A stretch of DNA of 64,000 nucleotides. Origin: a virus. Positions 12,609-36,930 of the stretch are shown one piece after another. Location of the stretch: positions 1 to 64,000 of the IMG/VR virus record IMGVR_UViG_3300002520_000085; one strand, written 5' to 3'. A model generated the notes under the pieces. The model saw only the letters and a program-made list of their open reading frames with translations. It was not told the DNA's origin and searched no databases. Position 1 is the stretch's first letter. The number at the start of each line of letters is the position of its first letter. A program made the translations under genes and the position numbers.

Positions 12609-14130
12609 TTTTTCACAATTTAAAATGCCTGTTAGAAACATCAATCACAATCTTATGCAGGCTGCGGTAACCGAGGCTATTATAGACGGAGTAAAAGAAA
12701 TTGATGTAGAGGCGGGAAGAGGAGCGGGTAAGTCTACGGTTTTAGGCAAAAAAATACATACCAATGTAAAAGAAATGCCTAAATCTACCGGTGTAGTGGT
12801 TGCTGAAACTTTCGTACAAATCAAAACCAGAACTTTAGCTTCTACAAAGGAGGGTTTAAAGATGTATGGCCTTCATGAAGATATTCATTATATCGTAGGT
12901 TCTTGCGGTAAGAAGAAAGGTTTTGAAATGCCTTTTCAATCTCCCGATTCTTGGCATAATGTTATTCATTTTTTTAATGGCACTATTGCGGTTTTTGTTT
13001 CTTTGGATGATCCCAATTCGGGGCGTGGTTTAAATGCTTCTTGGGTAGTTGGCGACGAGGCGGCGTTACTTGATTATACAAGATTATTCAATAACGTTTT
13101 AACGACCAATAGAACGGTAAAGGCAGAGTTTAAATACTCTAAATCGCTTAACTCGGTAATGTTTGTTTCTTCTGTTGCTATGTCGCAGAAAGGCGCTTGG
13201 TTTACAGAAAGAGAGGCTAAGAGTATTAAAAATCCTAAGAAATATAGGTTTATTAAAGCTAATGCTTTTGTAAATGCTCACAATCTTGCACCTGGTTGGA
13301 TTAAATATATGAAAGAGAATGCTCTTTCTAAGATGCTTTTTGAAGCCGAAATATTAAATATCCGACCTCGTGGTGTATTGGAAGGTTTTTATCCACAGCT
13401 CAAGGTAAGACATTATTATAATTCTAAAGACAATGTAGAGTTACTCGGAGGTGTGACCGAAGATTATACGCCGAGCTGTAAGTATGACCGTGATTTGGTG
13501 CGCAATGTACCACTAGATTTTAATCTTGACTTTGGTGGTAAGATTAATTGCGGGACCGTCTCGCAGTATCTTAGCACAACCAATGAGCTTAACTTTATTA
13601 AGGAGTTTTATGCAAAGTCTGTAGATAGTGAGAAGCTTAGTGATTTGGTTAAGAAGTTTATAGAATACTATGAGCCTCACAAATCTTCATGCAACGTTGT
13701 ACATCTTTACCACGACCGCTCCGGTTATAAGGAAGAAGCCAACAGTAAGACTACACTTGCGGAAGATGTAGAAAATCAATTGAGAAAGGCAGGATGGAAG
13801 GTTATAAATCGCACACCAAATACAAACAATCCTGGTCACATCATGAAGTTTAGACTTATTGAGGAAATATTGAGTGAGACTAACCACGAATTGCCAACGG
13901 TGCGCATCAATCAAGACCGTTGCCCGAATCTTATTATATCGATGGAGAATGCAGAAATCACGCATAAGAACTCAAACTTTGAGAAAGATAAAAGTAGTGA
14001 GCGTTCTAAGACTATACCGCAAGAACATGCAACGCATTTCAGTGATACTTTTGATTATAGGTTGTATTGGGGCTTCGGCTCGGTAATAGATCCTGCCTAT
14101 ACATCTTCGTTTATCATCCACAACCTGTAA
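12601..14130 (+). CDS. phage terminase large subunit
   Basis: Walker A-like VEAGRGAGKST, Walker B-like VVGDEAALL, 509 aa, followed by a terminator. Confidence 0.75.
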   Translation: MSSFSQFKMPVRNINHNLMQAAVTEAIIDGVKEIDVEAGRGAGKSTVLGKKIHTNVKEMPKSTGVVVAETFVQIKTRTLASTKEGLKMYGLHEDIHYIVGSCGKKKGFEMPFQSPDSWHNVIHFFNGTIAVFVSLDDPNSGRGLNASWVVGDEAALLDYTRLFNNVLTTNRTVKAEFKYSKSLNSVMFVSSVAMSQKGAWFTEREAKSIKNPKKYRFIKANAFVNAHNLAPGWIKYMKENALSKMLFEAEILNIRPRGVLEGFYPQLKVRHYYNSKDNVELLGGVTEDYTPSCKYDRDLVRNVPLDFNLDFGGKINCGTVSQYLSTTNELNFIKEFYAKSVDSEKLSDLVKKFIEYYEPHKSSCNVVHLYHDRSGYKEEANSKTTLAEDVENQLRKAGWKVINRTPNTNNPGHIMKFRLIEEILSETNHELPTVRINQDRCPNLIISMENAEITHKNSNFEKDKSSERSKTIPQEHATHFSDTFDYRLYWGFGSVIDPAYTSSFIIHNL

Positions 14131-17514: not shown

Positions 17515-17528
17515 AGAATGTCCTTTTG

Positions 17529-17554
17529 TAGCGGGTTTTAGCCCGCTATTTTTG
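17529..17554 (+). terminator. rho-independent terminator
   Basis: tagcgggttttagcccgcta hairpin plus T-run. Confidence 0.5.
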
Positions 17555-20577: not shown

Positions 20578-21057
20578 ATGATACTAGAATTTTTAAAAGA
20601 AGATTACGAGGCAATTATCATGAAGCTAGTTGTAATTGGCGTGTTATGGTGCGCTGTACTGCTTTCGATGATGATTGATTTTTATTTTGGGATTCGGAAA
20701 GCCAAACAAATTGGAGAAGTTCGAAGTTTTGAAGGCTATAAAAGAAGTGTGGCAAAGTTTAATCAATATTTTGGAATGCTCCTTTATGCTTTTATTTTTG
20801 ACACCATTGTTCCGATTTCTTATTTTTTTGAATTTCCAATTTCGGCAATTCCTGTAGTTTCTCTTTTAGCAACGGTTGCGCTTGTTTTTACGGAAGCAAA
20901 ATCCGTCCATGAAAAAGCGGATGATAAACAACGTAGAAAGGTAAATGCTTCGTTAATGCAGGTTTTAGAACTTCTTGAAAAAAAAGACGATGTTTTACAT
21001 GAATTACTCGATAATTATAAAAAACAAAAAGAAAATGAAAACATTGAAAATCCTTAG
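20578..21057 (+). CDS. putative holin (3 predicted TM segments)
   Basis: Hydrophobic segments VVIGVLWCAVLLSMMI, FGMLLYAFIF, AIPVVSLLATVALVF with a charged C-terminus; precedes the spanin-like and endolysin genes. Confidence 0.45.
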   Translation: MILEFLKEDYEAIIMKLVVIGVLWCAVLLSMMIDFYFGIRKAKQIGEVRSFEGYKRSVAKFNQYFGMLLYAFIFDTIVPISYFFEFPISAIPVVSLLATVALVFTEAKSVHEKADDKQRRKVNASLMQVLELLEKKDDVLHELLDNYKKQKENENIENP

Positions 21058-21727
21058 TGCCATTTTGCTGATGTCGGCAATATGGTCATGCGGAACTCGC
21101 TCTGTTGACAAAAACAAATACGTCCAAAAATCGGAAGAAAACAAGGAGCAAAATTCAGAAGTAAAAAAAGAATCTGAAAACAAAGAAACTGCGGTTATTT
21201 CCACCGAAAATAATTCAACAAGTGTAATAAATGCACAAGTTAAAATCGCCGAAATTGATAAGCAAAATGAACTTTCAACAAAAACGAAAACTGATTCTGA
21301 ATCTTCGGAAACTAAACTCTTTATTTCTGAATATTATCCAAATGGATTTTTAAAATCTAAAACAGAATATTCAGCAAATCAATCAAAACTTTTGCAGGAA
21401 AATTCCCAACTTAAAAAGGAAAATGAATCTTTTTACTCAACGATTTTAGCAAAAGAGGAAGAAAATAAAATTACTTCTGTTCAAAATTCTTTTTTAGAAA
21501 AAAACAACAAAGCAAAATCCGACAGCATTGGAAAATTAAAGAAGCAAATCGAAAACTTTTCAAAAAATACATCAAATAAAACCGAAAGAAAAGCTTATCC
21601 AGTTTGGGTTTGGATTTTACTAGGAGTTATCATCGGAAAATTTGGATGGGATATTTTAAAGTTGTTTTGGCAAAAAATAAAAGCTTCCCAATGGTGGCTA
21701 CAATTAATTTCAAAAATTAAAAAATGA
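21035..21727 (+). CDS. unimolecular-spanin-like lipoprotein (N-terminal lipobox and C-terminal TM)
   Basis: MKTLKILSAILLMSAIWSCG lipoprotein signal, coiled-coil middle, C-terminal TM VWVWILLGVIIGKFGW. True start taken at ATG 21035, not the track start 20975. Confidence 0.45.
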   Translation: MKTLKILSAILLMSAIWSCGTRSVDKNKYVQKSEENKEQNSEVKKESENKETAVISTENNSTSVINAQVKIAEIDKQNELSTKTKTDSESSETKLFISEYYPNGFLKSKTEYSANQSKLLQENSQLKKENESFYSTILAKEEENKITSVQNSFLEKNNKAKSDSIGKLKKQIENFSKNTSNKTERKAYPVWVWILLGVIIGKFGWDILKLFWQKIKASQWWLQLISKIKK

Positions 21728-22134
21728 GAGATATAGATTACCTCGTTGTGCATTGCACAGCCACACAGCCAGAAACTAAAGTTGAAAGTATTCAAAATTA
21801 CTGGAGAAAAAATTTAGGATGGAAAAGTCCAGGCTATCATTATATGATTAAGGCAGATGGAGAAATAGTTCCACTTCTTTCGATTGAAAAAGTGAGCAAT
21901 GGCGTTGCCGGCTATAATTCTAAGATTATCAACATTAGCTATATTGGAGGAATTGATAAAGCAGGAAAGCCGAAAGATACAAGAACTTCGGAGCAAAAGG
22001 CATCAATTTTGAAGCTTTTAAAAGATTTAAAAAAACGATTTCCTTCTGCTAAAATTCAAGGTCATAGAGATTTTCCGAAAGTAAATAAAGCCTGTCCCAG
22101 CTTTGATGCAAAAATGGAGTATTCAAAAATTTAG
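21724..22134 (+). CDS. N-acetylmuramoyl-L-alanine amidase endolysin (amidase_2/PGRP, T7-lysozyme-like)
   Basis: YLVVHCTAT...SPGYHYMI...GYNSKIINISYIGG...GHRDFPKVNKACPSFD are zinc-amidase motifs. Confidence 0.8.
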   Translation: MRDIDYLVVHCTATQPETKVESIQNYWRKNLGWKSPGYHYMIKADGEIVPLLSIEKVSNGVAGYNSKIINISYIGGIDKAGKPKDTRTSEQKASILKLLKDLKKRFPSAKIQGHRDFPKVNKACPSFDAKMEYSKI

Positions 22135-22266: not shown

Positions 22267-23034
22267 ATGAAAATTACGGTTGCAAAATCCTGGCAAGAAC
22301 TCACCAATTGGCAATTGGAAGAGATTATCGATCTCTATCTTCACCATTTCGAAAAAGAACCGCAGAAAACGTTTGATAAAATGATTTTCGTACTCTTTCA
22401 AAAAAAGAAAGGTTTTTTTACCCGCCTCAAGCTCTGGAAAATCATACGCTTGGTTCCGATATCGGAGTTGTACGAGTTTGGAGAATTTCTTTTGCAACCG
22501 CCAAAACTTCACGTTTTCCCAGAAGTTGAAAATCTTATAAAACCTGCAGACCGCCTTGGTGATATTTCTTCTAAACATTTTTCGTTTACAGACCAATTTT
22601 TCCAGGAATGGATTTCCACAAAAAACGATGAAGCTTTAAAAAGATTGTGCGCCAATATCTACATAATAAACGAAAATTTCGACGAACAAAAATTGAAAGA
22701 CGTTGCACAAACTACAAGTAAACTAAGCCGAAAAAAACGGCAAGTAATAGGTTTTACGTACATGTCTTGCTACCATCATTTAGCAGCGCAATATCCTACA
22801 GTTTACCCAAAACCGAAAGAAGAAGATCCGGAAGCAAAACCAAAACTAAAACCGCAGAAAAAACACACGCCATTTTCAGAAATTATCATCAATATGGTGA
22901 TGAACGAAGAAAGCCAACCGCTCGGAAACTTCCATCAAACTAACAATACAAGAATTTACGACTTCTTGAACGTGTTATCAAAAATTATAATCAAAAACAA
23001 AAAAGCCGAAGAAAATGCCAACCGAAAAAAATAG
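22267..23034 (+). CDS. hypothetical moron protein (255 aa)
   Basis: ORF downstream of the lysis terminator. Confidence 0.45.
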   Translation: MKITVAKSWQELTNWQLEEIIDLYLHHFEKEPQKTFDKMIFVLFQKKKGFFTRLKLWKIIRLVPISELYEFGEFLLQPPKLHVFPEVENLIKPADRLGDISSKHFSFTDQFFQEWISTKNDEALKRLCANIYIINENFDEQKLKDVAQTTSKLSRKKRQVIGFTYMSCYHHLAAQYPTVYPKPKEEDPEAKPKLKPQKKHTPFSEIIINMVMNEESQPLGNFHQTNNTRIYDFLNVLSKIIIKNKKAEENANRKK

Positions 23035-23518
23035 TTATCTAAAAATGAAAGATTACTTCGAAGATCTCGTAAGTAAATCTACACTCGTGCACTCTTTTGC
23101 AGGATATTTCCGCAGAGAATTGCTTAATAATATGCAATCTCCCGATTGGGATTCGCCATATCTCGCCTTATTCGATTATGAACTTTCACTTTCGGGACCA
23201 GAGCAAAACACGGTTTCTGTTCGCGAAATTGGTTTTGCCGTGATGTTTAATAATATCGATGAAAGCGACCTCGAAGCGCAATACAAAGCCATTGACGATG
23301 CTGAAAAAATTGTTATGAAATTTTTAGCAAGAATAAAACTGGATGCAGCCAATCCAGAGCATTTTTTGCATGGCTCTTTTGTGAAAGAAAATACAAACAT
23401 CACACCGGTAGAACTAGATACACAGTCTTTCGGTGCAGAATGTAGATTGCAGTTTAAAAACTCCCAAACTTTAAAAGCCGACGCAGCAGACTGGACAGAC
23501 GATTTCCTCACCTGCTAA
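23015..23518 (+). CDS. hypothetical moron protein (167 aa)
   Basis: ORF overlapping the previous one by 20 nt. Confidence 0.45.
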   Translation: MPTEKNSYLKMKDYFEDLVSKSTLVHSFAGYFRRELLNNMQSPDWDSPYLALFDYELSLSGPEQNTVSVREIGFAVMFNNIDESDLEAQYKAIDDAEKIVMKFLARIKLDAANPEHFLHGSFVKENTNITPVELDTQSFGAECRLQFKNSQTLKADAADWTDDFLTC

Positions 23519-23546
23519 ATTTTTTCATCATTTTTATTTTTTACTT

Positions 23547-23576
23547 CCCAACCCTGTAAGGTTGGGGTTTTTCTTT
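23547..23576 (+). terminator. rho-independent terminator
   Basis: cccaaccctgtaaggttgggg plus T-run. Confidence 0.6.
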
Positions 23577-23584
23577 TCCCACTT

Positions 23585-23637
23585 CCCACAAAAAAAAACA
23601 TTCTTTTTTTCTATATTAGTAGAAAAATTTTTAACCA
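23585..23637 (+). promoter_or_regulatory. conserved ~53-bp promoter/regulatory block, copy 1 (cccacaaaaa...ttctttttttctatattagtagaaaaatttttaacca)
   Basis: Near-identical copy at 25010-25064. Each lies between a terminator and a start codon; -7-like TAnnTTTG context for Bacteroidetes sigma-A. Confidence 0.5.
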
Positions 23638-23644
23638 GAAAACT

Positions 23645-24733
23645 ATGCAAACTATGGAAACTTTTGATGAAGTTTTAGATTATATTGTTGAACACGTGCA
23701 GACGATACCAAGCCGAAAAAGGTATTGGTTAATTCGTACCAATTCAGGACAATTTTATGATACTTTTAAAGAAAATAATTTTGTAGGATTAGATCATTCT
23801 CAAATTAGCCTAAGAGAACTATCAAAACTTCGAACGCGTTACAGAGATGATCTGTTATTTTTGTCTGCAATAAAAGAACAAATTGCTGATTTTTATACTC
23901 CAGATTTAGAAACCGGTGAAAGAACAAAAAATGATCGCGCTATTTCTCTTATTGCAAATCAGATTTTTAAATTTTATACACAGGTAAAAAAAGGAGATTT
24001 AGTAATAATACCTTCTTACAGCAGCTCGAAAGTCGCTTTCGGAATCGTTGATGAAACTTTTATTGCTGAATTTACTGAGGAAGAGTTAGATAAAATTGAT
24101 ATTGCAGAGCAATTTTTGAATAAAAGAGTCACATGGATAAACGATTTTGATAGGACATCTTTAGATCCAAACATTTATAAAATGTTTACTGCACATCAAG
24201 CAATTACTGAAGTAGGTAAATACGCAGATGTTATTGAAAGAACCCTACAAGACTTTTTCATACTTGAAAATGAAGCCCACTTGATAATTAATGTTCAAAA
24301 ACCAGATGGAATAAATGCTCGCAGTTTATTTGGATTAGGAAATAGTTTCTTAGATATTTTACAGGATGTGATTGACACACTTGAAATACAAGGTGTTTCC
24401 GCCAATGATTTTGAAGTAGAAGTAAATATTAACAGCCCTGGTAAAATTGATTTAAAATCAAGAATTAAAAAAGGAACGGTTTTGGCATTTTTCACTTTAG
24501 CTGTCTTTGGTGGAGGTTACGAAAGCCAAAGCTTTAAACTAAAATCAGATGGCTTACCAGGATTAATTAAAGCAATAACAGACGCTATTAATAATTACAG
24601 AGATGCTGAACAAGATAGAGCTATGCAAAAAGAAATATTCGACCAATATAAAGACAAACTTGATGTGAAACAAGTAGATGATATGATCAAAATAATGAAA
24701 CAAGTAGATGATAATCAGGATAAGCCAAAATAA
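23645..24733 (+). CDS. hypothetical moron protein (362 aa), own promoter and terminator
   Basis: ORF; no recognisable domain. Confidence 0.5.
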   Translation: MQTMETFDEVLDYIVEHVQTIPSRKRYWLIRTNSGQFYDTFKENNFVGLDHSQISLRELSKLRTRYRDDLLFLSAIKEQIADFYTPDLETGERTKNDRAISLIANQIFKFYTQVKKGDLVIIPSYSSSKVAFGIVDETFIAEFTEEELDKIDIAEQFLNKRVTWINDFDRTSLDPNIYKMFTAHQAITEVGKYADVIERTLQDFFILENEAHLIINVQKPDGINARSLFGLGNSFLDILQDVIDTLEIQGVSANDFEVEVNINSPGKIDLKSRIKKGTVLAFFTLAVFGGGYESQSFKLKSDGLPGLIKAITDAINNYRDAEQDRAMQKEIFDQYKDKLDVKQVDDMIKIMKQVDDNQDKPK

Positions 24734-24760
24734 TTTGTACATTTGCAAAAATAAACCACA

Positions 24761-24970
24761 ATGCCCTCAATTTTAAATCTAATCTCAGTGGCTAGTGCAT
24801 TCTTATTTGGAGTTGGTTGTTTGTATTGGATAATGGATGTTACCATTGGCAAGTTGAAATTTTTACATTCGGAAAAAGAATGGCATGGACTGCAAGTAAA
24901 AGATTTTGTTTTTTTAATCTCAGCTGCAATTCTTTTGATTAGTATTTTTGATTTTTATAAACCTTATTAA
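24761..24970 (+). CDS. small membrane protein (69 aa, 2 TM)
   Basis: Hydrophobic SVASAFLFGVGCLYWIM and FLISAAILLISIF. Confidence 0.4.
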   Translation: MPSILNLISVASAFLFGVGCLYWIMDVTIGKLKFLHSEKEWHGLQVKDFVFLISAAILLISIFDFYKPY

Positions 24971-24976
24971 AAATAT

Positions 24977-25004
24977 AACCCCGCCATCGCGGGGTTTTTC
25001 TTTT
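24977..25004 (+). terminator. rho-independent terminator
   Basis: aaccccgccatcgcggggtt plus T-run. Confidence 0.6.
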
Positions 25005-25009
25005 ACGGG

Positions 25010-25064
25010 TGCCCACAAAAACAAAAAAATTCTTTTTTTATATATTAGTAGAAAAATTTTTAAC
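25010..25064 (+). promoter_or_regulatory. conserved promoter/regulatory block, copy 2
   Basis: cccacaaaaacaaaaaaattctttttttatatattagtagaaaaatttttaacca, near-identical to 23585-23637. Confidence 0.5.
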
Positions 25065-26169
25065 CATGAAAAAAATAATGACTTACGACTTAATGGTCGC
25101 AGGAACTCAATTTATTGATCCTTCTTTGAATATGCCTAGATTTATGAACGCTTCCGGTTTACAAACTGGAGATTCTGTAATTCTAAAATTAGAACCTAAT
25201 AATCCAGTTGATAAATTTGCAGTTGCAGTTTTAAATAAAAATTTTCTAATTGGGTATATTCCTAAAAATGAAAACTTAGAAATTGCATATTACTTAGATC
25301 ATCCGGATAAATATGATGTACAAACTTTCGTAAAGAAGAAAGATGATTCTCGAGATATGCTTGTTTTATTGATAGATGTTTTGGCAAAAAATGAAACAGC
25401 AGAAAAAGTTGAAATTTCAATTTTACGAGATTGGATGAATAGCTTAAGAAAACCGCAAAGCCAAAACACAGCAGTTCCTCAGAATGTAGGATCAACAAAA
25501 AAAGGGACTAGCGGTTGCGTAATAGCTTTGTACGTAGTAATTTCTGTACTTATTGGTTTAGTTTTATTGGGATTATTGGTGAATACATGTGCTTCTAATA
25601 TGGAAACAAGCAAAGGTTCAGATTCTATCGCTATAAATGTAGATTCTACCGCTGTAAGTACAAATACGAAAACTATTGAAAAAAAGAAAAAAGATTCAGC
25701 AACCATCGCAAAATTGAAGCCTTTGTTTAGAGTAGAAAAAGATGAGTTTCAAGATATTTCTTGGGTTCATGGGAAAAATGAACCTCCTTACAGAAATTCA
25801 AATGGATTTTATTGCTACTTTGCAGAAGATGATAATGGTAATGTTTCAAATTTTAGATTTGTTGGGCAATATGCTGCCGAAGATTGGATATTTTTTAAAA
25901 AACTTACCTTTAATATTGATGGAAAAAATATAGATTTTTACCCACAAAATTTAAATTCAGACCATGATACTACAATTTGGGAATGGTACGACGATCAGGT
26001 AGACGCCACTACTTTTTTAACACTTTACGCTATTTCTAAAGCTAAAACAGTGAAAGTGAGATTTCACGGACAACAGTATTATGATGATAAAGTAATGTCT
26101 GAAAAAAGCAAAAGCAACATTAAAAATGCTCTAGAATATTATGTTGCAAGAGGTGGTAAAATAGAATAA
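25064..26169 (+). CDS. membrane-anchored HIRAN-domain protein (N-terminal HIRAN, single TM, ~200-aa C-terminal domain)
   Basis: MVAGTQFIDP...GDSVILKLEPNNPVDKFAVAV...IGYIPK matches the HIRAN consensus. TM: CVIALYVVISVLIGLVLLGLLV. Start taken at ATG 25064 (MKKIMTYDL) because the track start 25009 lies inside the promoter block. Confidence 0.55.
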
Positions 26170-26175
26170 AAATAA

Positions 26176-26207
26176 ATCCCGCAAAACTATTGCGGGATAT
26201 ATTTTTT
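26176..26207 (+). terminator. rho-independent terminator
   Basis: atcccgcaaaactattgcgggat plus T-run. Confidence 0.6.
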
Positions 26208-26491
26208 ATCGTAAATTTGTCTCGATAGAAATAACAAGACGAGGAAAGTCTCTAAATTTTCCAATACATTTTAACGATATTATACAAGCTCGGTCTTGGT
26301 GATTAATGGTAAAGCTTTTCCTCGGAATTGTTGTTTGTAGCAAAACACCACGAAAACCAAGACTTTCTTTTTTCGTGGTTTTAAGAGGAAAACTTTTAAA
26401 ACAAAAATAAATGCTACAAACAACACACACAGCCAAAAACCAAAGAACCAGTAAGTTTTTAGGCAACAGAAGAAAAAGACAACTAGGGAAA

Positions 26492-26698
26492 ATGTATGTT
26501 TCTGTACTCCCAGAAAACAAAAACCTAACAGCAAAAAAAAGAATACCCATTTTTTGCAGAATTCTACAAGGTATTTATCACGTAAAATACAAATCTGAAG
26601 AAACCGGAAGATTTGCGCAAGGTTTCGGTGCTACCCTCGAAATCGCCTTCGAAAACATGAACAAACATTTCACCGAAAAATATATTTTGCCATGCTAA
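26492..26698 (+). CDS. hypothetical small protein (start at MYVSVL)
   Basis: ORF; upstream part of the track ORF 26411.. is probably non-coding. Confidence 0.3.
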   Translation: MYVSVLPENKNLTAKKRIPIFCRILQGIYHVKYKSEETGRFAQGFGATLEIAFENMNKHFTEKYILPC

Positions 26699-26961
26699 TT
26701 AATCCAGAATCTTTCGAGTACCAGCTTTCGCACCGCCTTTCACACATGCAGGATCGTGCGCAGAAAACGAAGAAATACATTACAAAAATTCTTCAGATCA
26801 AAAAGCAAATAGAAATTGGCGATCCTATAGATGATGAAGATTTCAAACTTTTAGATACGATGCTCGATGATATAATATTTATCCGGGAACTTTGTGTAGA
26901 AAGTGAAGATTTCGGTAATTTTATTCACTATCATAGTGGCATAGATGCTTACTTAGATTAA
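26692..26961 (+). CDS. hypothetical protein (89 aa)
   Basis: ORF followed by a strong terminator. Confidence 0.4.
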   Translation: MLINPESFEYQLSHRLSHMQDRAQKTKKYITKILQIKKQIEIGDPIDDEDFKLLDTMLDDIIFIRELCVESEDFGNFIHYHSGIDAYLD

Positions 26962-26984
26962 ATTTAACTAACTTTTATATTCCA

Positions 26985-27024
26985 AACCCCGCTGTCCTTT
27001 CCTTTCGACAGCGGGGTTTTTACT
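26985..27024 (+). terminator. rho-independent terminator
   Basis: aaaccccgctgtcctttcctttcgacagcggggttt plus tt. Confidence 0.6.
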
Positions 27025-27884: not shown

Positions 27885-30800
27885 ATGGCAGGAAGCAATG
27901 TTCCCGCAAATGTTGTTATTAGAATCAACGACAGGGAAGTTACCAATTCTTTTAGAGGTATAAACGCCGAAGTGCGCCGTTTACAACGTGAGCTTAATGG
28001 GGCAGAAGTAGGCTCTGAAGAATTCACACGCACATTCAACGAACTTCAAGTTGCGAGAAGGCATTTAGAAAGCGTACGAACAGAAATCCAAGGAACGACA
28101 CAAGATTTAAGAGAGAGCTCTACAGAAATAAAAAATTTCAGCGATCTAGGTTCTTTTCTTGGCGACAAATTTTCTAACGGTCTTTCGGGAGCTAATCTTT
28201 CTTTTCGTGGTCTTGGAACTACAATTAAGACTTTTGCGGTAGAATCTTGGGCTGCAATTGGTTCAATCCCAATTATCGGATGGATTGCCGCTTTAGTTGC
28301 AGGGATTGGTTTGGTGGTGAAAGAAGTTTTTGATTTTAATAAGGAATTGAATGAAGCTAATAAATTGGCTTCTGATGTTACAAAATTACAAGGAAGAGAA
28401 CTTGATTCAATTACAAACAGGAGTCAAAATCTTGAAAAATTAGTTGGATTCGACCGCCAAGAAACTTTAGAAGCGGCAAAAGCGGGGGTTATGTCTTTCA
28501 AAATAACCTATACCGAAGCCATGAATGAAATAGAAAATGGCGCAGTAAGAGGAGGGAGAGCGAATAAAGAATTTCTAAATTCATTAACTGAGTACGCCCC
28601 TTTTTTAGGTAAGGCAGGATATTCCTTCAAAGAATTTGTAGCTATTGTAAACACGGGATATGATTTGTCTATATATAAAGATAAACTTCCGGATGCGTTG
28701 AAAGAATTTGATATTTCAATGCGTGAGCAAACTAAATCTACTCGCGATGCATTAGTAAATGCTTTTGGAGCGACCTTCGCAGACGATTTATTAAAAAGAG
28801 TTTCTGATGGAAAACTTTTAATGAAAGATGCTCTCATTGAAATTAAAAAAGAATCAGATAAATATCATCTTTCAGAAAAACAACAGGCGCAGATTACAGC
28901 AGATATTATGCGAGGTGCTGCGGAAGATGCTTCCGGAAGTGCAATGGTTTTAATGGCAGTTACTAAAGCCCTTGTTGATCAAAATAAACCGCTCACGGAA
29001 GCTCAGCAAATTTTAAAAGATCAGATAGATAGTTATAATGAATTAGGTGAAGCAAAAATTGATGCATTAAAATCGGATGCTATTCTTGCATTTCAAAGAG
29101 ATTTAGAACATTTATGGATTAATATTCAAAAAGGGTTTTATAATGTAATAACCATTTTAAGATCAGTAAATACTTATACACAAACAGCTATACTTACAAT
29201 TTCACAATATTTAGCTGTGCTAAATGTGAGAGTTATGGGCGTTTTCAAGGGAATGTTAGCAGATTTGGGAAACGTAGCTTCAGCATTTTTCGAACTTGGG
29301 AAACTAGCTAAATCTGCCTATAACTTAGACTTTGAAAAAGTAGATCAGTCTTTTGATACCATAAAATCAAAACTAAAAAGCAGTTTAAGTAATACGAAGA
29401 AAGCGTTTAGCGAATTTGGAAAGGAATCTGGTATTAGTTTTATGAATAACTATAATAAGATTTTAGCCAATGACAAAGCTAAAGCTGATGCGCAAAGATA
29501 TGTAGATTCATTAAGAGAAAATGCCAGCAAAAAAACAAACAATTTTGATGGAACTGCGGGAAATGATCCTAATAAAGCGAAAAAAGATGCAGAAGCTCGT
29601 GCCAAAAAACTTGCTGCCGAAAACGAAAAACTGCGTAAAGAAATTCAAAAAGATCTTGAATATTCTGAAAATGATCTAGAAAAATCTGAAAAAAGAAAAC
29701 AAGACCTTAAAAACCAATATCGCTCCGAAGAAATTGCTTTAATGAAAGACGGCTTGCAAAAAGAACTTGCTCAAGCCGATTTTGCTCGTGCGCAAGAATT
29801 ACAAAAACTTTCTGCAAATGGAGAAGAAATTCAGGCCAAAATTTTAGAGCTCGAAAAAAAGAAACTCGAAGCAAAATCTCCTGTCGCAAAAGCCAATTAC
29901 GACAAAGCTTTAAAAGAAGAGCTCGAGGCAAGATATCAGAATGATCTTTTAATTGAAAAAACTGAGCAGACGCATCAATTTAGATTAAAAACGATTAAAG
30001 AAAAATGGCAGGCTTCAGATATTGAGAAAATTGTAAAGGCAGGGGCTAAAAAATTAGAATTATCAGCTCAGCAAAAAGAGCAGGAAATTCAAAATATTAC
30101 CTCTCTTGAAGATGCAAAATATCAGCTTCAGAATGCACAATATCTAAAACTTACAGGCGAAGAATTAAGGCAGATTGACACGCTTGAGAAAGCAAAAGCC
30201 GCCTTACGTGAAAATGCTTCTCGTGCGATGCTCGAAGAATCTAGAAAACTAGCCGAAGAAAATCTTGCAATTTTAGAAGAATCTGTAAAATCTATGACGG
30301 ATGGACCAGAGAAAGAAAAGCTAATGGAGTATATCGATACTTTGAAGGCTAGAATTCTGGAATTAAAAGGTTCTATTCAAAAAGGAGGTGAGCAAGATGC
30401 GGGGAAAGCATTAGAAGACCAAAACAAAGCAAAATCAAAAGTAGATATACTTGGCTTTTCTGCCAAAGACTGGGAAGATACATTTAAAAATACAGATGAT
30501 ATTTCCGGTAAATTAGCCGCCATGGGCATGATCTTCCAGGCGTTAGGAAATGCAGCACAAATGTTCGGCGATCTTCAAAGAGCCTTGGGCGAAAGAGAGC
30601 TAAAAAACTTTACCAAAATACAAAAAGCAAAAAAATCACAGCTTGACAAAAATCTCGCTTCCGGCTTAATTTCTCAGGAAGAATACAACAAGCGCACAGA
30701 AGCGATGGATATTGAACTTGCCAATAAGCAAGCTGAAATAGAATACAAGCAAGCGAAAGCAGATAAAATATCTAAATTGTTTTCTGCTATTGGAGCGACA

Positions 30801-31340
30801 GCTTTAGGGGTAGCCAACGCTTTATCAGCTGGTCCCGCAGGAATAGTTTTAGCCGCCATCGTCGGTGCATTAGGAGCTGTACAAATCGCCACCATTGCAG
30901 CACAGCCACTCCCTGAAAAGCCAAGTTTTGCAGACGGTGGTTTCACGGGCAAAGGTTTTGGTTTTCCAGATAAAACTGGCTTCAAACAAGCAGGCTTTGT
31001 ACACGAAAACGAATGGGTTGCCCCCGAATGGATGACAAAACACCCAAGAATTTCAAAAGACATTAAGCGGTTAGAATTTATGCGACAAAATGGTCCATCT
31101 TCTTACGCAGATGGCGGTTATACAGAAACTTCTTCTAATTCTACCAATACAACTACGGCAACAGCTTCAGAAAGTAACGATTCTCTTCGCTCACTTTTCG
31201 TGAGATTGCTCGGCATTTTCCAAAGAATAGACGACAACGGAGGTTTAGAAGCTTTTATCGTAGACAATCCGCAGAACCAAAAAAAGGTTTACCAAATGAC
31301 TAAAAAAAGAGAATCATTAGAAAATAAAAATAAACATTAA
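27885..31340 (+). CDS. tail tape measure protein
   Basis: 1151 aa, long alpha-helical/coiled-coil middle, hydrophobic glycine-rich segments (IIGWIAALVAGIGLVV; AGPAGIVLAAIVGALGAV), position upstream of the tail genes. Confidence 0.75.
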   Translation: MAGSNVPANVVIRINDREVTNSFRGINAEVRRLQRELNGAEVGSEEFTRTFNELQVARRHLESVRTEIQGTTQDLRESSTEIKNFSDLGSFLGDKFSNGLSGANLSFRGLGTTIKTFAVESWAAIGSIPIIGWIAALVAGIGLVVKEVFDFNKELNEANKLASDVTKLQGRELDSITNRSQNLEKLVGFDRQETLEAAKAGVMSFKITYTEAMNEIENGAVRGGRANKEFLNSLTEYAPFLGKAGYSFKEFVAIVNTGYDLSIYKDKLPDALKEFDISMREQTKSTRDALVNAFGATFADDLLKRVSDGKLLMKDALIEIKKESDKYHLSEKQQAQITADIMRGAAEDASGSAMVLMAVTKALVDQNKPLTEAQQILKDQIDSYNELGEAKIDALKSDAILAFQRDLEHLWINIQKGFYNVITILRSVNTYTQTAILTISQYLAVLNVRVMGVFKGMLADLGNVASAFFELGKLAKSAYNLDFEKVDQSFDTIKSKLKSSLSNTKKAFSEFGKESGISFMNNYNKILANDKAKADAQRYVDSLRENASKKTNNFDGTAGNDPNKAKKDAEARAKKLAAENEKLRKEIQKDLEYSENDLEKSEKRKQDLKNQYRSEEIALMKDGLQKELAQADFARAQELQKLSANGEEIQAKILELEKKKLEAKSPVAKANYDKALKEELEARYQNDLLIEKTEQTHQFRLKTIKEKWQASDIEKIVKAGAKKLELSAQQKEQEIQNITSLEDAKYQLQNAQYLKLTGEELRQIDTLEKAKAALRENASRAMLEESRKLAEENLAILEESVKSMTDGPEKEKLMEYIDTLKARILELKGSIQKGGEQDAGKALEDQNKAKSKVDILGFSAKDWEDTFKNTDDISGKLAAMGMIFQALGNAAQMFGDLQRALGERELKNFTKIQKAKKSQLDKNLASGLISQEEYNKRTEAMDIELANKQAEIEYKQAKADKISKLFSAIGATALGVANALSAGPAGIVLAAIVGALGAVQIATIAAQPLPEKPSFADGGFTGKGFGFPDKTGFKQAGFVHENEWVAPEWMTKHPRISKDIKRLEFMRQNGPSSYADGGYTETSSNSTNTTTATASESNDSLRSLFVRLLGIFQRIDDNGGLEAFIVDNPQNQKKVYQMTKKRESLENKNKH

Positions 31341-33595: not shown

Positions 33596-35042
33596 AAAAT
33601 TTGTCGTTCCGGATATCCATATCTACGCCAAAGAAGTCGCTGCCAAAACATGGCCGGAGACAAATTTTAATTTTCCGAGAATCTATTCAAAAAAATATGA
33701 TTCTGATGAAAGTTTTAACGATTTTGACGGATATTACAACGACTTGCTTCCCGATGGAAGCGAAATGAAGCGAAATTATATTGATGGAGGAGGCACGCCG
33801 AGAAATATTAACATCATTCATCCATGTGTGCATCCTATCTACATTTTAATGAAAGGATTTTCAGACGCAAATCTTGAGCTCGAAGGCGATATTCTTACAG
33901 ATCCAGTTCTGCAAAAGAAATGGGTTTTTTCCGGAACCGAATATTTTTCGAGGTTTTCACAAAAACGATACGGACTCGACGTCAATGGTGATGATTTCGT
34001 TTCTTACAACGGTTTTGTTGCGACGTACATCAACAGTTTGACCGTTGAGAAAAAAGGAAAATACAAAATCGTAGGCTATTTTAATGCGAAAGGAATCGGA
34101 AGTGATAATTTATCTTCCATCAGAATGAATGGTATTTTGATCTGGCAGATAGGGAGCCACTACACGCAGGAGCAGGATCTGTTTTTCAACATCGATCTTA
34201 ATATTGAAAATGATAATACCGTACTTACATTTTTTCACCGCCGTGGCTATTCTTCAGCAGCTTCAACCGTGATTCATGTCGACTTAATCGGCGATGAGCT
34301 GATAGCCTCAGACACCGTTGATACTGGAGTGATCACCAATAAAAACGAAATCGATTTAGCCAGAGCCGTTCCCGACATGACGTTCGGCGAGTATTTTACG
34401 AAAATTAAAAACTGGCTGAATTACGACCTCGACATTATTGACAACCGCGCAATTATGAACAGAATTGCGACCGAAGAAATCACCGGAGTAAAAGATTTCA
34501 CCGCTTTCGAAGGCGCAAAACCGAAACGCACATTTCTCAACCAGCGTTCCTGGCTTATGAAATTTGCCGACCTCGACGGTGAAGAAAAAAAGGATTCCAT
34601 GTATTTCGACAACAATGGTCCGAAGCTCAACGGCACAGAAAAAGAAGATACCAACGTGATCGAAATCGATGGCTACGTCCTTCCACAAAGATTACCAAAG
34701 GAAAACGGCTACAATACCGCCTACGTTTTGAAAGATTCTTCCACAACACTCGCCCTCGTAGACTACGACGGACTGAAAAACGGACAAAACAACGCCAACA
34801 ACGCCACCGACTGCGATTTTCCTCAGCTGTTTGAAAGCCATTGGAAAAACTGGTTAAAACTTCGTTTGAATGGCCAAGAATTCAATTGGACTAAAATTGT
34901 AAACGCAGAACAGTTTTCGCAATTCAGCATTAAAAATTTCATTTATGCCTACAATAATGTGCACATAATTAAGAACTGGAGCAAAAACAAACTCAACCGA
35001 GAATTGTACAGCGTAGAATTTACAACAGAAACGGTAAGTTAA
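33555..35042 (+). CDS. phage tail/baseplate protein (495 aa)
   Basis: ORF in the tail module; last + strand gene before the integrase. Confidence 0.45.
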   Translation: MILVLMNCRILSFEKFVVPDIHIYAKEVAAKTWPETNFNFPRIYSKKYDSDESFNDFDGYYNDLLPDGSEMKRNYIDGGGTPRNINIIHPCVHPIYILMKGFSDANLELEGDILTDPVLQKKWVFSGTEYFSRFSQKRYGLDVNGDDFVSYNGFVATYINSLTVEKKGKYKIVGYFNAKGIGSDNLSSIRMNGILIWQIGSHYTQEQDLFFNIDLNIENDNTVLTFFHRRGYSSAASTVIHVDLIGDELIASDTVDTGVITNKNEIDLARAVPDMTFGEYFTKIKNWLNYDLDIIDNRAIMNRIATEEITGVKDFTAFEGAKPKRTFLNQRSWLMKFADLDGEEKKDSMYFDNNGPKLNGTEKEDTNVIEIDGYVLPQRLPKENGYNTAYVLKDSSTTLALVDYDGLKNGQNNANNATDCDFPQLFESHWKNWLKLRLNGQEFNWTKIVNAEQFSQFSIKNFIYAYNNVHIIKNWSKNKLNRELYSVEFTTETVS

Positions 35043-36256
35043 GCCAAATCTGAAAACTCGCCTTCCTCACTCGGAAACTCATTTATATCATCTAGAACAG
35101 CATCAATAATTTTCCTGTGAACTTCATCTTTGATTTTCACAGGAAATTTTCCTTCGTAAATAGACAAAGTATCGCCTTGCGAATGCCCAACTAATTCTTT
35201 TATAATGTCTCGATTTTGGTAAAGCTCCATGCTTCCAATGTGAATAAACGTATAGCGAGGTGTTTTTGAATCGACGTGAGAAAAAATATTGCATTGTGAA
35301 ACGGCTTTTCTAATTCTTTCTACATAATTTTTGCGGTAAGTTTCATAATCGTACTTATGAATTGGCAAAATAAACAGAGAATCTTCTTCGTGGAAGAAAT
35401 CAATTATTTTTTTTGCTTCCGGAAATATTTTATTATTAATTACTTCCTGCGTATTACCTTTTGCACGCATTTTTTTTATTCTGCCGTTTTTTATATCAGA
35501 TTTTCTTAAGGTAGCAATATCAATAAAATCAAGACCACCAAGATAAAAGCACAGCATGAAGTATTTATAGTGAACAGATTTTGAGGAACTTTTTAATAAA
35601 GTTTTCATTTCATCGCTCGTAAAATATTTGTCTTTTGTCGGCTTTTCTTTCTCCATAATTCTTGTAAATGGATACGTGCCTTCATTTTTGTAAATTCCGC
35701 GCCTAACTGCTTCGTTGTAGATGGCTTTTAGTTTTGATAAATAAGTATTTATTCCAGAAGCGCTACACGTCGCCGATTTTTCAATTTTAAACTTGGTTAA
35801 AAACTCGTACGTAATTTCTTCAAAAGACAATGTAGGCTTGTATTCTTTCCAGACATTCAAATTGTATTGGTAAACACCGGCATTGCCTTTTGTTTTTAAA
35901 ACTTTACTTTTATTTTCAAGCTTTTTCTTTTCTTCAGCAATCCGAGTTTCCCAAAAATCATAAACATCACCATCTTTCCCGAAGATGTAATTTTTTATTT
36001 GCAAAGAGGTGCGTTTTAAATTTGATTTTTGAAGTTTGTTAATTTTAAATTTTATATCTAATATTTTTTCGATAACAACAGAATAATTTGGATGAGATTT
36101 TTTCGGCTCTTCTTTTTCAAAATCCCAATGTTCTGCGAATGAAAATAAATTAATAGAAGGATAACACCGATCAGATTTAGAAATAAAAATATTAATAACA
36201 ATTGGATGTCCCTTTTGCCTATTTCTACTTTGATCTAACGTTATATTTACTTTCAT
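35039..36256 (-). CDS. tyrosine integrase, Bacteroidetes phage-integrase type with N-terminal arm-binding domain
   Basis: C-terminal TPRYTFIHIGSM...LVGHSQGDTLSIYEG matches the catalytic region. 405 aa. Adjacent to the 3' end of tRNA-Thr(GGT). Confidence 0.7.
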   Translation of the reverse strand: MKVNITLDQSRNRQKGHPIVINIFISKSDRCYPSINLFSFAEHWDFEKEEPKKSHPNYSVVIEKILDIKFKINKLQKSNLKRTSLQIKNYIFGKDGDVYDFWETRIAEEKKKLENKSKVLKTKGNAGVYQYNLNVWKEYKPTLSFEEITYEFLTKFKIEKSATCSASGINTYLSKLKAIYNEAVRRGIYKNEGTYPFTRIMEKEKPTKDKYFTSDEMKTLLKSSSKSVHYKYFMLCFYLGGLDFIDIATLRKSDIKNGRIKKMRAKGNTQEVINNKIFPEAKKIIDFFHEEDSLFILPIHKYDYETYRKNYVERIRKAVSQCNIFSHVDSKTPRYTFIHIGSMELYQNRDIIKELVGHSQGDTLSIYEGKFPVKIKDEVHRKIIDAVLDDINEFPSEEGEFSDLA

Positions 36257-36404
36257 CTTTTAAAATGTCTGAAAAATGTCTGAACAAATATAATATTTTG
36301 TAAGTATTTTGTAAGTATTTTAATCGGAATTTTAAATATGAAAAGTTAATGTAAAGCTTTAAGGAAAAAGAAAAACACGCTGTAAATCAACGTGTTTCAA
36401 AGTG

Positions 36405-36476
36405 AGCCAACTACGGGACTTGAACCCGTGACCTCTTCCTTACCAAGGAAGCACTCTACCGCTGAGCTAAGTCGGC
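36405..36476 (-). tRNA. tRNA-Thr (anticodon GGT)
   Basis: Reverse complement GCCGACTTAGCTCAGCGGTAGAGTGCTTCCTTGGTAAGGAAG...GGTTCAAGTCCCGTAGTTGGCT folds as a cloverleaf; anticodon loop TTGGTAA. Confidence 0.8.
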
Positions 36477-36515
36477 GTAAAATAAAAAATCACACTAAAA
36501 GCGTGATTTTTATTG

Positions 36516-36588
36516 AGCGGAAGACGGGGGTCGAACCCGCGACATTCAGCTTGGAAGGCTGACGCTCTACCAACTGAGCTACTTCCGC
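36516..36588 (-). tRNA. tRNA-Gly (anticodon TCC), copy 1
   Basis: Reverse complement GCGGAAGTAGCTCAGTTGGTAGAGCGTCAGCCTTCCAAGCTGAATGTCGCGGGTTCGACCCCCGTCTTCCGCT. Confidence 0.8.
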
Positions 36589-36610
36589 AATTTTGTTTCC
36601 AAAATTATTG

Positions 36611-36647
36611 GTACAGTCAGTCCCATTTAGCCACTCTGGAATCTCCC
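36611..36647 (-). pseudogene. truncated tRNA-Tyr remnant (5' half through anticodon GTA only), copy 1
   Basis: Reverse complement GGGGAGATTCCAGAGTGGCTAAATGGGACTGACTGTA closely resembles the tRNA-Tyr acceptor 5' strand, D-arm and anticodon loop. No matching 3' half before tRNA-Gly begins. Confidence 0.5.
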
Positions 36648-36666
36648 CGAGTTTATATTAAAATAG

Positions 36667-36740
36667 AGCTTCCAGAGGGATTCGAACCCACGACCCCGAG
36701 ATTACAAATCACGTGCTCTGGCCAACTGAGCTATGGAAGC
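36667..36740 (-). tRNA. tRNA-Thr (anticodon TGT), copy 1
   Basis: Reverse complement GCTTCCATAGCTCAGTTGGCCAGAGCACGTGATTTGTAATCTCGGGGTCGTGGGTTCGAATCCCTCTGGAAGC; anticodon loop TTTGTAA. One U-U mismatch in both the anticodon stem and the T stem, hence moderate confidence on isotype. Confidence 0.6.
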
Positions 36741-36905: not shown

Positions 36906-36930
36906 AATTTTGTTTCCAAAATTATTGGGT

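Follow-up and report, generated by a model that had tools for sequence, protein, structure and literature searches.

A repeated putative terminator-promoter module precedes unrelated accessory genes in the tail region of Chryseobacterium siphophages

Introduction

Temperate phages keep exclusion and defence functions among the accessory genes of their tail operons. To our knowledge, what governs the gain of such genes is known mainly from lambdoid and T4-like phages of Proteobacteria. The archetypal moron, gene 15 of HK97, is located between the genes for the tail chaperone and the tape measure (PMC3594210) and encodes gp15, an inner-membrane exclusion protein (Juhala et al, 2000; Cumby et al, 2012; reviewed in PMC3594210). 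Classical morons are not thought to move via conserved flanking sequences (PMC2839356). T4-like phages carry promoter-early stem-loop (PeSL) modules (Arbiol et al, 2010, PMC2839356; Comeau et al, 2014, PMC4122927).

Here we analyse a 64,000-nucleotide stretch of viral DNA ("the window"; IMG/VR record IMGVR_UViG_3300002520_000085, positions 1 to 64,000), in which two unrelated cargo units near the tape-measure gene are each preceded by a copy of one repeated block. All coordinates are positions in the window on the + strand.

Results

A variable site in the tail region

The window consists of ~28 kb of host DNA and 36 kb of prophage. The phage is a temperate Chryseobacterium siphophage whose integrase, the only one found, adjoins the tRNA-Thr attachment end. 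In the family of phages that share the module described below, a hypervariable region spans from a conserved 167-aa gene, its left anchor (23,015-23,518), to the tail-chaperone/tape-measure genes. Homologues of the 167-aa gene are 56-70% identical in six related loci (L003-L005 and L013-L015). Between-phage nucleotide similarity stops just past the T-run of the terminator of this gene, which marks the left breakpoint. A preliminary description had put the cassettes between the lysis cassette and the tape measure gene; conserved phage genes intervene on both sides (255 and 167 aa towards the lysis genes; 95, 89, 103 and 156 aa towards the tape-measure gene). Its view that the location is atypical did not survive comparison with HK97, where gene 15, the first moron described, also sits beside the tape-measure gene, with the tail chaperone gene on its other side (PMC3594210).

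Among the related loci examined, duplicate contigs aside, the flanks are conserved and the cargo differs, and the cassette site is a conserved hot-spot of the module-bearing family. Cassette 1 is lacking in the sister phages and recurs only in the more distant L022/L023, and a single cargo gene separates the 167-aa gene from the downstream genes in L013 and in L075/L076. The site is organised alike in L022, but with a different repeated module, present in three copies, and one of the L022 cassettes consists of a DUF8426 gene and its partner. The cassettes of the window thus separate genes that are neighbours in related phages, as morons do by the Hendrix/Juhala definition, and the variation of cargo between loci bears out the accessory status first proposed for them. 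The cargo genes have a GC3 of 0.20-0.24 (~0.20), against 0.33-0.38 in four flanking genes, a low value that is shared by the holin gene and a 984-aa gene.

A nucleotide search of GenBank phages matched the amidase gene alone, in Flavobacterium phages. Protein-anchored scans retrieved three loci from genome contigs, three from IMG/VR and three from metagenome contigs (only two of them new), whereas none came from scanning with the 156-aa protein. Since these scans gave so few loci, the family is rare in the sampled data.

The duplicated block belongs to a ~100-nt composite module

A repeat search reported a single block pair of this kind, 23,587-23,642 and 25,016-25,071, with 89% identity over 56 nt. 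The 25-mer TATATTAGTAGAAAAATTTTTAACC occurs exactly twice in the 64 kb, a count unchanged when up to three mismatches are allowed, and gave no match in 100 shuffles; the duplication is far beyond chance. Each copy lies 3′ of a hairpin and T-run and 5′ of an unrelated gene. The duplication of a ~53-bp promoter block, as it was originally described, is therefore real, but the block is not a mere promoter: it forms the 3′ part of a family-wide module of ~100 nt. The order of elements in the module is terminator hairpin, TTTTTCTTTT(ACGG), phage-specific upstream box, T-run, -7 box, A/U-rich leader and ATG(AAAAAA). Between the window copies, similarity reaches upstream into the T-run (TTTTTCTTTT) and continues downstream beyond the start codon (AACCAGAAAA versus AACCATGAAA), and the leader of copy 1 retains a relic of a start codon (AACCAGAAAA).

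A terminator scan predicted three intrinsic terminators that bracket the two cassettes. Terminator 1 (23,546-23,577; hairpin 23,546-23,567 plus TTTTTCTTTT) ends the 167-aa gene and forms the 5′ part of module copy 1; its hairpin, CCCAACCC(C/T)GTAAGGTTGGG, is kept in the sister phages. It is followed by block copy 1 (23,584-23,644), with the CCCACAAAAA box, T-run, -7 box TATATTAG (23,612-23,619), a predicted transcription start site (TSS) at ~23,624 and a 21-nt A/U-rich leader. Terminator 2 (24,977-25,006; hairpin 24,977-24,996 plus TTTTTCTTTT) forms the 5′ part of module copy 2 and precedes block copy 2 (25,007-25,065), which has the ACGGGTGCCCACAAAAA box, T-run, -7 box TATATTAG (25,041-25,048), a predicted TSS at ~25,053 and a 13-nt leader. 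Terminator 3 (26,176-26,209; hairpin 26,176-26,198 plus T-run) closes the second cassette. Terminators 2 and 3 are predicted on both strands, and their hairpins and T-runs agree with the earlier claim that each cassette has its own terminator. A weak third "copy" of the block at 26,348-26,373 was rejected, being the terminator hairpin of the adjacent leader.

We found 13 copies of the module in 10 phage loci, all from one small family of Chryseobacterium siphophages; ten copies were aligned over 108 consensus positions, and three further copies lie in L075, L076 and L077. A single copy lies elsewhere; the others sit between the 167-aa gene and the genes for the tail chaperone and tape measure. 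Two copies each are present in the window, L003 and L015, with within-genome identities of 87, 69 and 84%, respectively, compared with 43-82% between genomes. A profile search of the window and 229 kb of loci added one copy only, before a further cargo gene of L005, and module copies were confined to positions before cargo genes of related phages. Across the whole of IMG/VR, scans found the module on no contigs other than those of L004 and L005, both family members, and the exact 25-mer had no match there. Two looser patterns were discarded: the seven matches of the degenerate core TTTTNTATATTWGNNGAAAAATT were all unrelated generic promoters, and 48 of the 50 matches of TTTTNTTTTACGGNNTCCC were chance occurrences inside coding sequence.

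The block contains a Bacteroidetes-type -7 box

The -7 box of the block is of the Bacteroidetes sigma-A type (TAnnTTTG), for which the box position and the G-5 rule have been described (PMC6847099). Six of the ten aligned module copies have the canonical form (TATATTTG), and from copy to copy the column of the box (T, A, T, T, T) hardly varies. Both window copies read TATATTAG, in which A replaces T-6, where the -7 element hardly ever deviates (PMC6847099). The distance from the box to the ATG is 13-26 nt, which fits the published geometry of Flavobacterium promoters and 5′UTRs (PMC6847099, PMC9723704). A TATATTTG/TATATTTA box also lies ~20 nt ahead of orthologous DUF8426 genes found in unrelated contexts. 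No -33 TTTG was found at the expected distance in the block, and with 22 matches of TAHHTTAG on the + strand of the window, the motif by itself says little. Some of what the phages share here (T-run, TATATTTG, A-rich leader) is a generic promoter consensus that is present in unrelated phage contigs too. A scan for the sigma-70 consensus, which is irrelevant for Bacteroidetes, showed no enrichment (25 found, 27.8 expected). Promoter activity, the start sites, terminator efficiency and lysogenic expression of the cassettes are predictions from sequence.

Cassette 1 encodes a DUF8426 protein and a small membrane partner

The first gene of cassette 1 (23,645-24,733) encodes a 362-aa protein of the DUF8426 family (PF28530), with 25-54% identity over 76-100% of its length to proteins with precomputed PF28530 matches (40-54% except for four distant members). 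Its N-terminal domain (~20-200) is EVE/YTH/PUA-like, and the C-terminal half has no assigned function. Residues 26-202 match positions 3-159 of the 324-position PADLOC profile PDC-S02 (E 2.6e-12), and the C-terminal half is unmatched. A Pfam SAM_2 match fell below the cut-off and was rejected.

Cassette 1 had been presented as a single gene; it is not one, as a second ORF (24,761-24,970) intervenes before the terminator and encodes a 69-aa protein with two transmembrane (TM) segments by hydropathy. A homologous ORF of 69-76 aa lies 3′ of the DUF8426 gene in six of six independent contexts (the window, L001, L002, L020, L022 and L024), a count from which the duplicate loci L021 and L023, which also carry it, were excluded. 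A canonical -7 box, TACATTTG (24,738-24,745), lies 15 nt before the 69-aa ORF and is a candidate internal promoter; TAAATTTG occupies the equivalent position before the partner ORF in L001 and L002.

One DUF8426 homologue has RADAR-like and DUF4365 neighbours. No HNH, PD-(D/E)xK or GTPase effector was detected with the EVE/YTH-like protein, and the small membrane partner would be the only candidate effector of cassette 1. Our guess is that the two genes of cassette 1 probably form a candidate defence pair able to sense modified nucleic acid; an EVE/YTH-like reader (DUF8426) signalling to a 69-aa two-TM effector may constitute a new kind of defence pair.

Cassette 2 encodes a HIRAN-TM protein

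Cassette 2 (25,066-26,169) encodes a 367-aa membrane protein with a cytoplasmic HIRAN domain (~1-110) and a single TM segment (146-179); its C-terminal domain (~215-367) is extracytoplasmic and rich in beta structure and belongs to a large unnamed family of secreted proteins and lipoproteins. The HIRAN assignment (PF08797) scored above the gathering threshold and agrees with the fold. Against PADLOC, only this region matches, at positions 129-221 of the 232 in PDC-M03B, and no gene adjacent to cassette 2 resembles a second PDC-M03 component. Sequence searches of the PDB were uninformative for both cargo proteins, and an NCBIfam search returned nothing. By a similar guess, cassette 2 is probably an exclusion-type protein located in the envelope.

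A defence role of the cargo is plausible in view of the PADLOC matches, which denote candidate families with one domain covered in each, together with the EVE/YTH-like fold, the HIRAN domain and the RADAR-like neighbourhood of a homologue.

An unannotated leader RNA lies immediately downstream of the cassettes

Beside cassette 2, a unit at 26,212-26,425 comprises a perfect -7 box, TAAATTTG (26,212-26,219), and a predicted leader RNA. Segment A (26,224-26,237) starts at the predicted 5′ end and is followed by segment B (26,328-26,342), a hairpin and T-run (26,348-26,383), and segment C (26,412-26,425), which covers the UG of the AUG and the first four codons of a 95-aa ORF. Two mutually exclusive helices are predicted, both covarying, one of which would sequester the start codon. 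We rejected an origin of the A/B/C repeats as a MITE or target-site duplication because the three segments change in step across 10 phages, even though C lies in coding sequence. A search of Rfam matched nothing at the gathering score anywhere in the window, and even at E ≤ 1 it gave no match within 26,205-26,432.

The 95-aa and 89-aa genes behind the leader (26,411-27,016) are closed by a hairpin (26,987-27,016); their function is unassigned, and neither protein matched Pfam, PHROG or PADLOC. The unit is optional: it occurs with the leader in 10 phages, and both are absent in L005 and L075/L076. The leader may be an undescribed RNA in which its own 5′ end and its own start-codon region compete for one sequestering segment, and it may gate a third, optional cassette made up of these two genes.

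Discussion

We favour, with a probability of roughly 0.6, the reading that the block is the promoter-and-leader half of a module that delimits insulated moron cassettes and supplies homology for their exchange. The hairpin would halt transcription arriving from upstream and host RNA polymerase would re-initiate at the -7 box, so that every cargo unit would act as a moron, insulated from its neighbours and expressed on its own. Homology for the gain, loss and swapping of cassettes would come from the repeated ~100 nt, as it does from PeSL modules in T4-like phages, and the block probably serves as recombination homology as well. Recombination at the modules is suggested by the breakpoints, the start-codon relic in copy 1 and the within-genome similarity of copies. 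In the window, the resident unit may originally have been a module with the HIRAN-TM gene, and the added cassette (DUF8426 protein, 69-aa two-TM partner and terminator) would have been inserted at the start codon of the resident gene, the module being duplicated during this two-gene insertion.

The block might instead be a regulated, factor-dependent promoter or operator, through which a dimeric regulator of phage or host origin bound near -40 directs signal-driven or lytic expression of the cargo. Both the T-6 deviation of the window -7 box and the lack of a -33 element suit such an arrangement, and several sister copies contain a palindrome, TACGG-N4-CCGTA, centred at about -40, which in L003 is the compensated variant TACGT-N4-ACGTA. 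Moreover, the upstream box is 83-89% identical within the window and within L015 and 18-71% identical between genomes, the phage-specific pattern expected if a co-evolving regulator binds there. Recent duplication, however, explains the within-genome similarity equally well; the window copies both have only a degenerate form of the palindrome (TACGGGTGCCCACA; TCCCACTTCCCACA), no regulator gene is linked to it, and the perfect -7 box in six of ten aligned copies implies no obvious need for an activator. We consider regulation of this kind rather unlikely. Duplication could also be all there is, the repeat having arisen passively from a single local duplication or insertion event, with no role in recombination and perhaps only one functional copy. 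Such an origin is in keeping with the start-codon relic and with the window copies being closer to each other (87-89% identical) than to any other copy. It is improbable given that doubling or tripling of a module before unrelated cargo recurs independently in L003, L015 and L022, with another module sequence in L022, and that both window copies keep a full T-run, box, leader and proper distance to the start codon.

Two further explanations treat the repeat as an element of a different class. If the module were the target of a dedicated site-specific recombinase, in the manner of integron cassettes, one would expect conserved hairpin-containing sites bounding cassettes at one locus, as observed, and a conserved motif such as the TTTTACGG..CCCGTA that adjoins the breakpoints. 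Yet there is no recombinase gene at the site, the only integrase being at the tRNA-Thr attachment end; the hairpins have the form of ordinary terminators, and other promoters serve some of the cargo units there, all of which makes this very improbable. The preliminary description had itself named a REP-like element found genome-wide as the outcome that would contradict it, and the block is indeed intergenic, repeated and beside a hairpin, as a REP- or MITE-like repeat dispersed through the host genome would be. But no further copy exists in the 28 kb of host DNA or elsewhere in the 36-kb prophage, and both the 229-kb profile search and the restriction of real modules in IMG/VR to two family members speak against dispersal, to which we assign next to no probability.

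On our preferred reading of insulated, exchangeable cassettes, the locus points to Bacteroidota siphophages inserting unrelated cargo at a single safe site by means of a repeated terminator-promoter module built on the unusual -7 promoter of the phylum. The module is a sequence handle for cargo and therefore for candidate defence genes in Flavobacteriia prophages, of which two are nominated here: DUF8426 with its two-TM partner, and the HIRAN-anchored envelope protein. That the hot-spot combines a Bacteroidota form of PeSL- or integron-like shuffling, in which a dedicated ~100-nt module with an operator-like palindrome at about -40 would both express and mobilise cargo, with a new defence pair and a new gating leader RNA is a broader proposal that we make tentatively and hold to be more doubtful than not; the strongly covarying leader RNA, if confirmed, would be a new riboregulator.

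In the phage P4 CI RNA (seqA/seqB/seqC) and in the fold-back of type I toxin mRNAs, one segment is complementary to two flanking ones, and alternative pairing involves the transcript's 5′ end. The leader adjacent to the cassettes shares this arrangement, including the involvement of its 5′ end; it has no sequence or Rfam relationship to these RNAs, and its segment C is the start-codon region of the 95-aa ORF.

The N-terminal EVE-like region of the 362-aa protein and the HIRAN region of the 367-aa protein resemble PADLOC PDC-S02 and the C-terminal part of PDC-M03B profiles, respectively, whereas the C-terminal halves differ, with one domain matched in each case. DUF8426 also differs from PDC-S02 in always being paired with a two-TM partner, and PDC-M03 is a multi-gene system. 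Modification-dependent restriction proteins with EVE/YTH domains (VcaM4I; N-terminal domains of McrB) differ from cassette 1, in which no HNH, PD-(D/E)xK or GTPase effector was detected.

Like the lambdoid morons exemplified by HK97 gene 15, the cassettes are extra genes of deviant base composition in the tail region by the tape-measure gene, with their own terminator and their own, here predicted, promoter. Cassette 2 is membrane-anchored, as is gp15, to which there is no similarity in sequence. Unlike classical morons, the cassettes are flanked by a conserved repeated module.

The closest analogue of that module is the PeSL module of T4-like phages, which it resembles in combining a stem-loop terminator, an AT-rich tract, a promoter and the start of translation in ~100 conserved bp, repeated before unrelated non-essential ORFs in a hyperplastic region. 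PeSL modules insulate their cassettes transcriptionally, as the module described here would, and in both cases the boundaries of indels between related phages coincide with modules. The Chryseobacterium module differs in its Bacteroidetes -7 TAnnTTTG box without -35/-10 elements or a Shine-Dalgarno sequence, in a stem-loop that is always upstream of the promoter, and in having only one to three copies per genome at one or two sites; recombination between copies that yields indels or mini-circles is a mark of PeSL modules, and for the Chryseobacterium module recombination is a proposal drawn from the breakpoints. PeSL modules have a sigma-70-type early promoter and belong to virulent T4-like myoviruses, whereas the module described here has a -7-type box and belongs to a temperate siphovirus with an integrase on its tRNA attachment side, and we therefore regard it as an analogue of PeSL rather than a member.

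A duplicated, predicted terminator-promoter module in the prophage

The prophage lies in + strand orientation, with genes for primase (773-4045), large terminase (12601-14130), holin (20578-21057), amidase (21724-22134) and tape-measure protein (27885-31340) on the + strand and the integrase gene (35039-36256) on the minus strand, adjoining tRNA-Thr(ggt) and then host genes. Its GC content is ~0.33. Its genes have their nearest relatives in Chryseobacterium genomes, and a nucleotide search of GenBank phages returned the amidase as the sole match, in Flavobacterium phages. The integrase end carries a duplicated tRNA array (Thr-Gly-Thr-Gly-Thr; 36404-37058), with a tmRNA gene 1.7 kb beyond it (38768-39171).

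The preliminary description reported a duplicated promoter block, which we recovered as a single 56-nt pair (23587-23642 and 25016-25071) with 89% identity. Within the 64 kb, its 25-nt core has exactly two occurrences even with three mismatches permitted, and none of 100 shuffles contained any match. Similarity of the copies also spans the T-run TTTTTCTTTT and extends beyond the start codon, where copy 1 reads AACCAGAAAA and copy 2 AACCATGAAA. The order proposed earlier, hairpin and T-run, block, gene and terminator, held for the hairpins, which are present at all three sites (23546-23567, 24977-24996 and 26176-26198), but cassette 1 consists of two genes, as a 69-aa ORF with two transmembrane segments (two-TM; 24761-24970) precedes the terminator. 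The second cargo gene starts at 25066 rather than 25064. Comparing the 362-aa and HIRAN-TM proteins confirmed that they are unrelated.

Related loci (L-numbers) were gathered via homologues of the cargo proteins, via the conserved 167-aa gene and via the 95-aa gene. A module of ~100 nt precedes cargo genes in related Chryseobacterium (pro)phages, with 13 copies found: ten in the alignment and three further ones in L075, L076 and L077. Its elements are, in order, a hairpin followed by TTTTTCTTTTACGG, a variable box that often reads TCCCGTA, a T-run with TATATTTG behind it, an A/U-rich stretch whose last letters are ACC, and finally ATGAAAAAA. By sequence comparison, the octamer matches the Bacteroidetes sigma-A -7 element TAnnTTTG, which spans -12 to -5; Flavobacterium promoters also have a weak -33 element and AT-rich tracts near -18 and -28, their 5'UTRs have a median of ~24 nt, and initiation is favoured by A at -3 (PMC6847099, PMC9723704). 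The -7 box is canonical in 6 of the 10 aligned copies; both window copies read TATATTAG, with A replacing the nearly invariant T-6. Using the G-5 rule, transcription is predicted to start at ~23624 and ~25053, which would give copy 1 a 21-nt leader and copy 2 a 13-nt leader, both with A at -3. DUF8426 orthologues in unrelated contexts are preceded, at a distance of ~20 nt, by a TATATTTG or TATATTTA box of their own, which supports reading the position of the box as the promoter. The motif by itself is weak evidence (39 canonical boxes on the + strand against 28 expected; 22 occurrences of TAHHTTAG), and the promoter argument draws on position, conservation and context. At 17527-17554, a canonical -7 box (TATTTTTG) 17 nt upstream of a 984-aa structural gene directly adjoins a hairpin (gcgggttttagcccgc); terminator-then-promoter junctions therefore punctuate the structural region too.

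The promoter could be regulated rather than a constitutive moron promoter. Several module copies have a palindrome, TACGG-N4-CCGTA, near -40, which may be an operator; the two window copies carry a degenerate version. Its centre lies ~40 nt ahead of the predicted start in L005 (~7998-8011), L014 (~9320-9333), L015 (~8917-8930) and L077 (upstream of 1440), and L003 (~5942-5955) has the compensated variant TACGT-N4-ACGTA. In the window, the related loci and the IMG/VR contigs scanned, the block is not a dispersed REP-like repeat. A search for further copies, as the preliminary description had suggested, used a profile scoring 58-79 bits on its ten training copies and yielded a single extra copy in 229 kb of window and loci; this copy (32 bits) lies upstream of another L005 cargo gene on the opposite strand, and the best further score in the window was 11.8 bits. 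In scans of 2.9 million IMG/VR contigs, real modules were confined to those of L004 and L005, both members of the family. The extra copy in L005 (3018-3090, minus strand) stands upstream of a ~100-aa gene within a second cargo site after the lysis genes, where 3206-4923 holds a 154-aa ORF and a 418-aa ORF that are umuD/umuC-like by eye.

The module marks a conserved cargo hot-spot

Both the 167-aa gene and the genes downstream of the site (103 aa, ~155 aa and tape measure) are conserved across the core set of related (pro)phages, and the cargo between them differs locus by locus, duplicate contigs excepted. The mid-structural lysis genes are likewise conserved. The site had been called atypical. 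It is instead a conserved hot-spot in this Chryseobacterium phage family, and HK97 carries the first-named moron between its tail chaperone and tape-measure genes (PMC3594210). The moron reading was largely right, though incomplete and wrong on location and gene content.

In the window (87%) and in L015 (84%), the module copies of one genome are closest to one another; the L003 copies are 69% identical, and identities between genomes are 43-82%. Phage-to-phage similarity ends directly after the T-run of the 167-aa gene's terminator. Single-cargo phages (L013, L075/L076) show the order 167-aa gene, terminator, module, secreted protein. At the equivalent site of a more distant phage (L022, 4900-7090), three near-identical copies of a different module, a hairpin plus TTTTTTTATTATCTTTGTGGCTGAAGAAAAATTTGTG, precede DUF8426 and its partner, a 164-aa protein and a 257-aa lipoprotein. 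The hot-spot also contains another repeated promoter block (cgtataaattatttgtacg ... gtttaacaattaaaattt), unrelated to the module, ahead of other small cargo genes (L005 6590-6693 and 7610-7697; L014 ~7640-7683; L015 ~7620-7662).

Cargo of the two cassettes

The 362-aa protein of cassette 1 belongs to DUF8426 (PF28530) and phrog_10226, and its EVE/YTH-like N-terminal region also matches the PADLOC candidate PDC-S02; neither a nuclease nor another effector fold was found in its C-terminal half. A two-TM ORF of 69-76 aa lies downstream of the DUF8426 gene in six of six independent contexts. We infer that cassette 1 is a two-gene candidate defence unit, coupling a modified-nucleic-acid reader to a small membrane effector. 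In L020 (1-4582), the neighbours of the pair are two genes encoding 934 aa and 775 aa, the second adenosine-deaminase-like by a faint Pfam hit, and a DUF4365 gene. This looks like a defence-island context; we take the 934-aa and 775-aa genes to resemble RADAR. Located after the stop codon of DUF8426 and ahead of the 69-aa ORF, a canonical -7 box (TACATTTG, 24738-24745) may serve the small membrane partner as an internal promoter; TAAATTTG occurs at the equivalent position of both L001 and L002. A perfect 18-nt direct repeat (TGAAACAAGTAGATGATA; 24666-24683 and 24696-24713, spacing 30 nt) close to the 3' end of the DUF8426 gene encodes a repeated KQVDD motif. In Chryseobacterium sp. S0630 (L001, 6001-8174), an 86%-identical DUF8426 gene and its partner are flanked by cyanophycin-related genes and accompanied by a solitary phage amidase gene; no module was found at this locus, which looks like a prophage remnant.

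The conserved part of the 367-aa protein of cassette 2 is its extracytoplasmic C-terminal domain, which reappears at the same site as a lipoprotein or anchored protein (L003, L005, L014, L017, L075/L076 and L077). The family it defines is large (884 cluster representatives, E<=1e-10) and has no Pfam name; only a handful of these representatives reach into the HIRAN region. Other phages have DUF4468, DUF4760, Adhesin_E-like or unnamed secreted proteins at this position. The most economical guess is that cassette 2 would act in exclusion at the envelope.

A predicted leader RNA heads a third, optional unit

Directly after terminator 3, a perfect -7 box on the + strand (TAAATTTG, 26212-26219) precedes a predicted leader of ~190 nt. 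On the same strand, segment A (26224-26237) starts where the 5' end is predicted; segment B (26328-26342) has complementarity both to A and to segment C (26412-26425), the latter made up of the UG of the AUG together with the first four codons of the 95-aa ORF. A hairpin with T-run (26348-26383) lies between B and C. In eight phages, the A:B helix comprises 14 pairs, with 98.2% of cells paired and compensatory changes at 8 of the pairs, and the B:C helix 13 (96.2%, 8 compensatory); both helices show strong covariation. None of 500 shuffles equalled the real alignment in paired percentage or in covariation score, and slid controls were only 29-48% paired. The three-way complementarity recurs in L022 and L077 with yet other sequences. 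The full-length fold of the window leader has B paired with C (z = -5.4), and an Rfam search of the leader gave no match. From its sequence, the leader resembles a switch with two forms, one in which the start codon is sequestered and one rescued by the 5' end.

The leader was found in the window, L003, L004, L013, L014, L015, L017, L019, L022 and L077, always together with the 95-aa and 89-aa genes, and all are jointly missing from L005 and L075/L076; because it is present only with these genes and absent with them, it heads a third, optional unit. The two genes, which gave no family match, occupy 26411-27016, closed by a hairpin (26987-27016) directly upstream of the 103-aa gene, which has no visible promoter.

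Comparison with known systems

Experiments are likeliest to pay off on the candidate defence cargo and on the adjacent leader RNA. The block itself is best described, by analogy, as a PeSL-like terminator-promoter module for a cargo hot-spot in temperate Chryseobacterium phages. In the PeSL model, a conserved terminator-promoter composite insulates cassettes and provides homology for their gain, loss and swapping (PMC2839356, PMC4122927). The model fits because of within-genome likeness, the breakpoint after the T-run, the single-cargo order and the L022 parallel taken together. The module would insulate its cassettes and may supply homology for their gain, loss and exchange. The likeness to PeSL lies in a terminator-promoter composite at variable cargo. 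For the exclusion role guessed for cassette 2, the analogue would be HK97 gp15, which is at the equivalent place.
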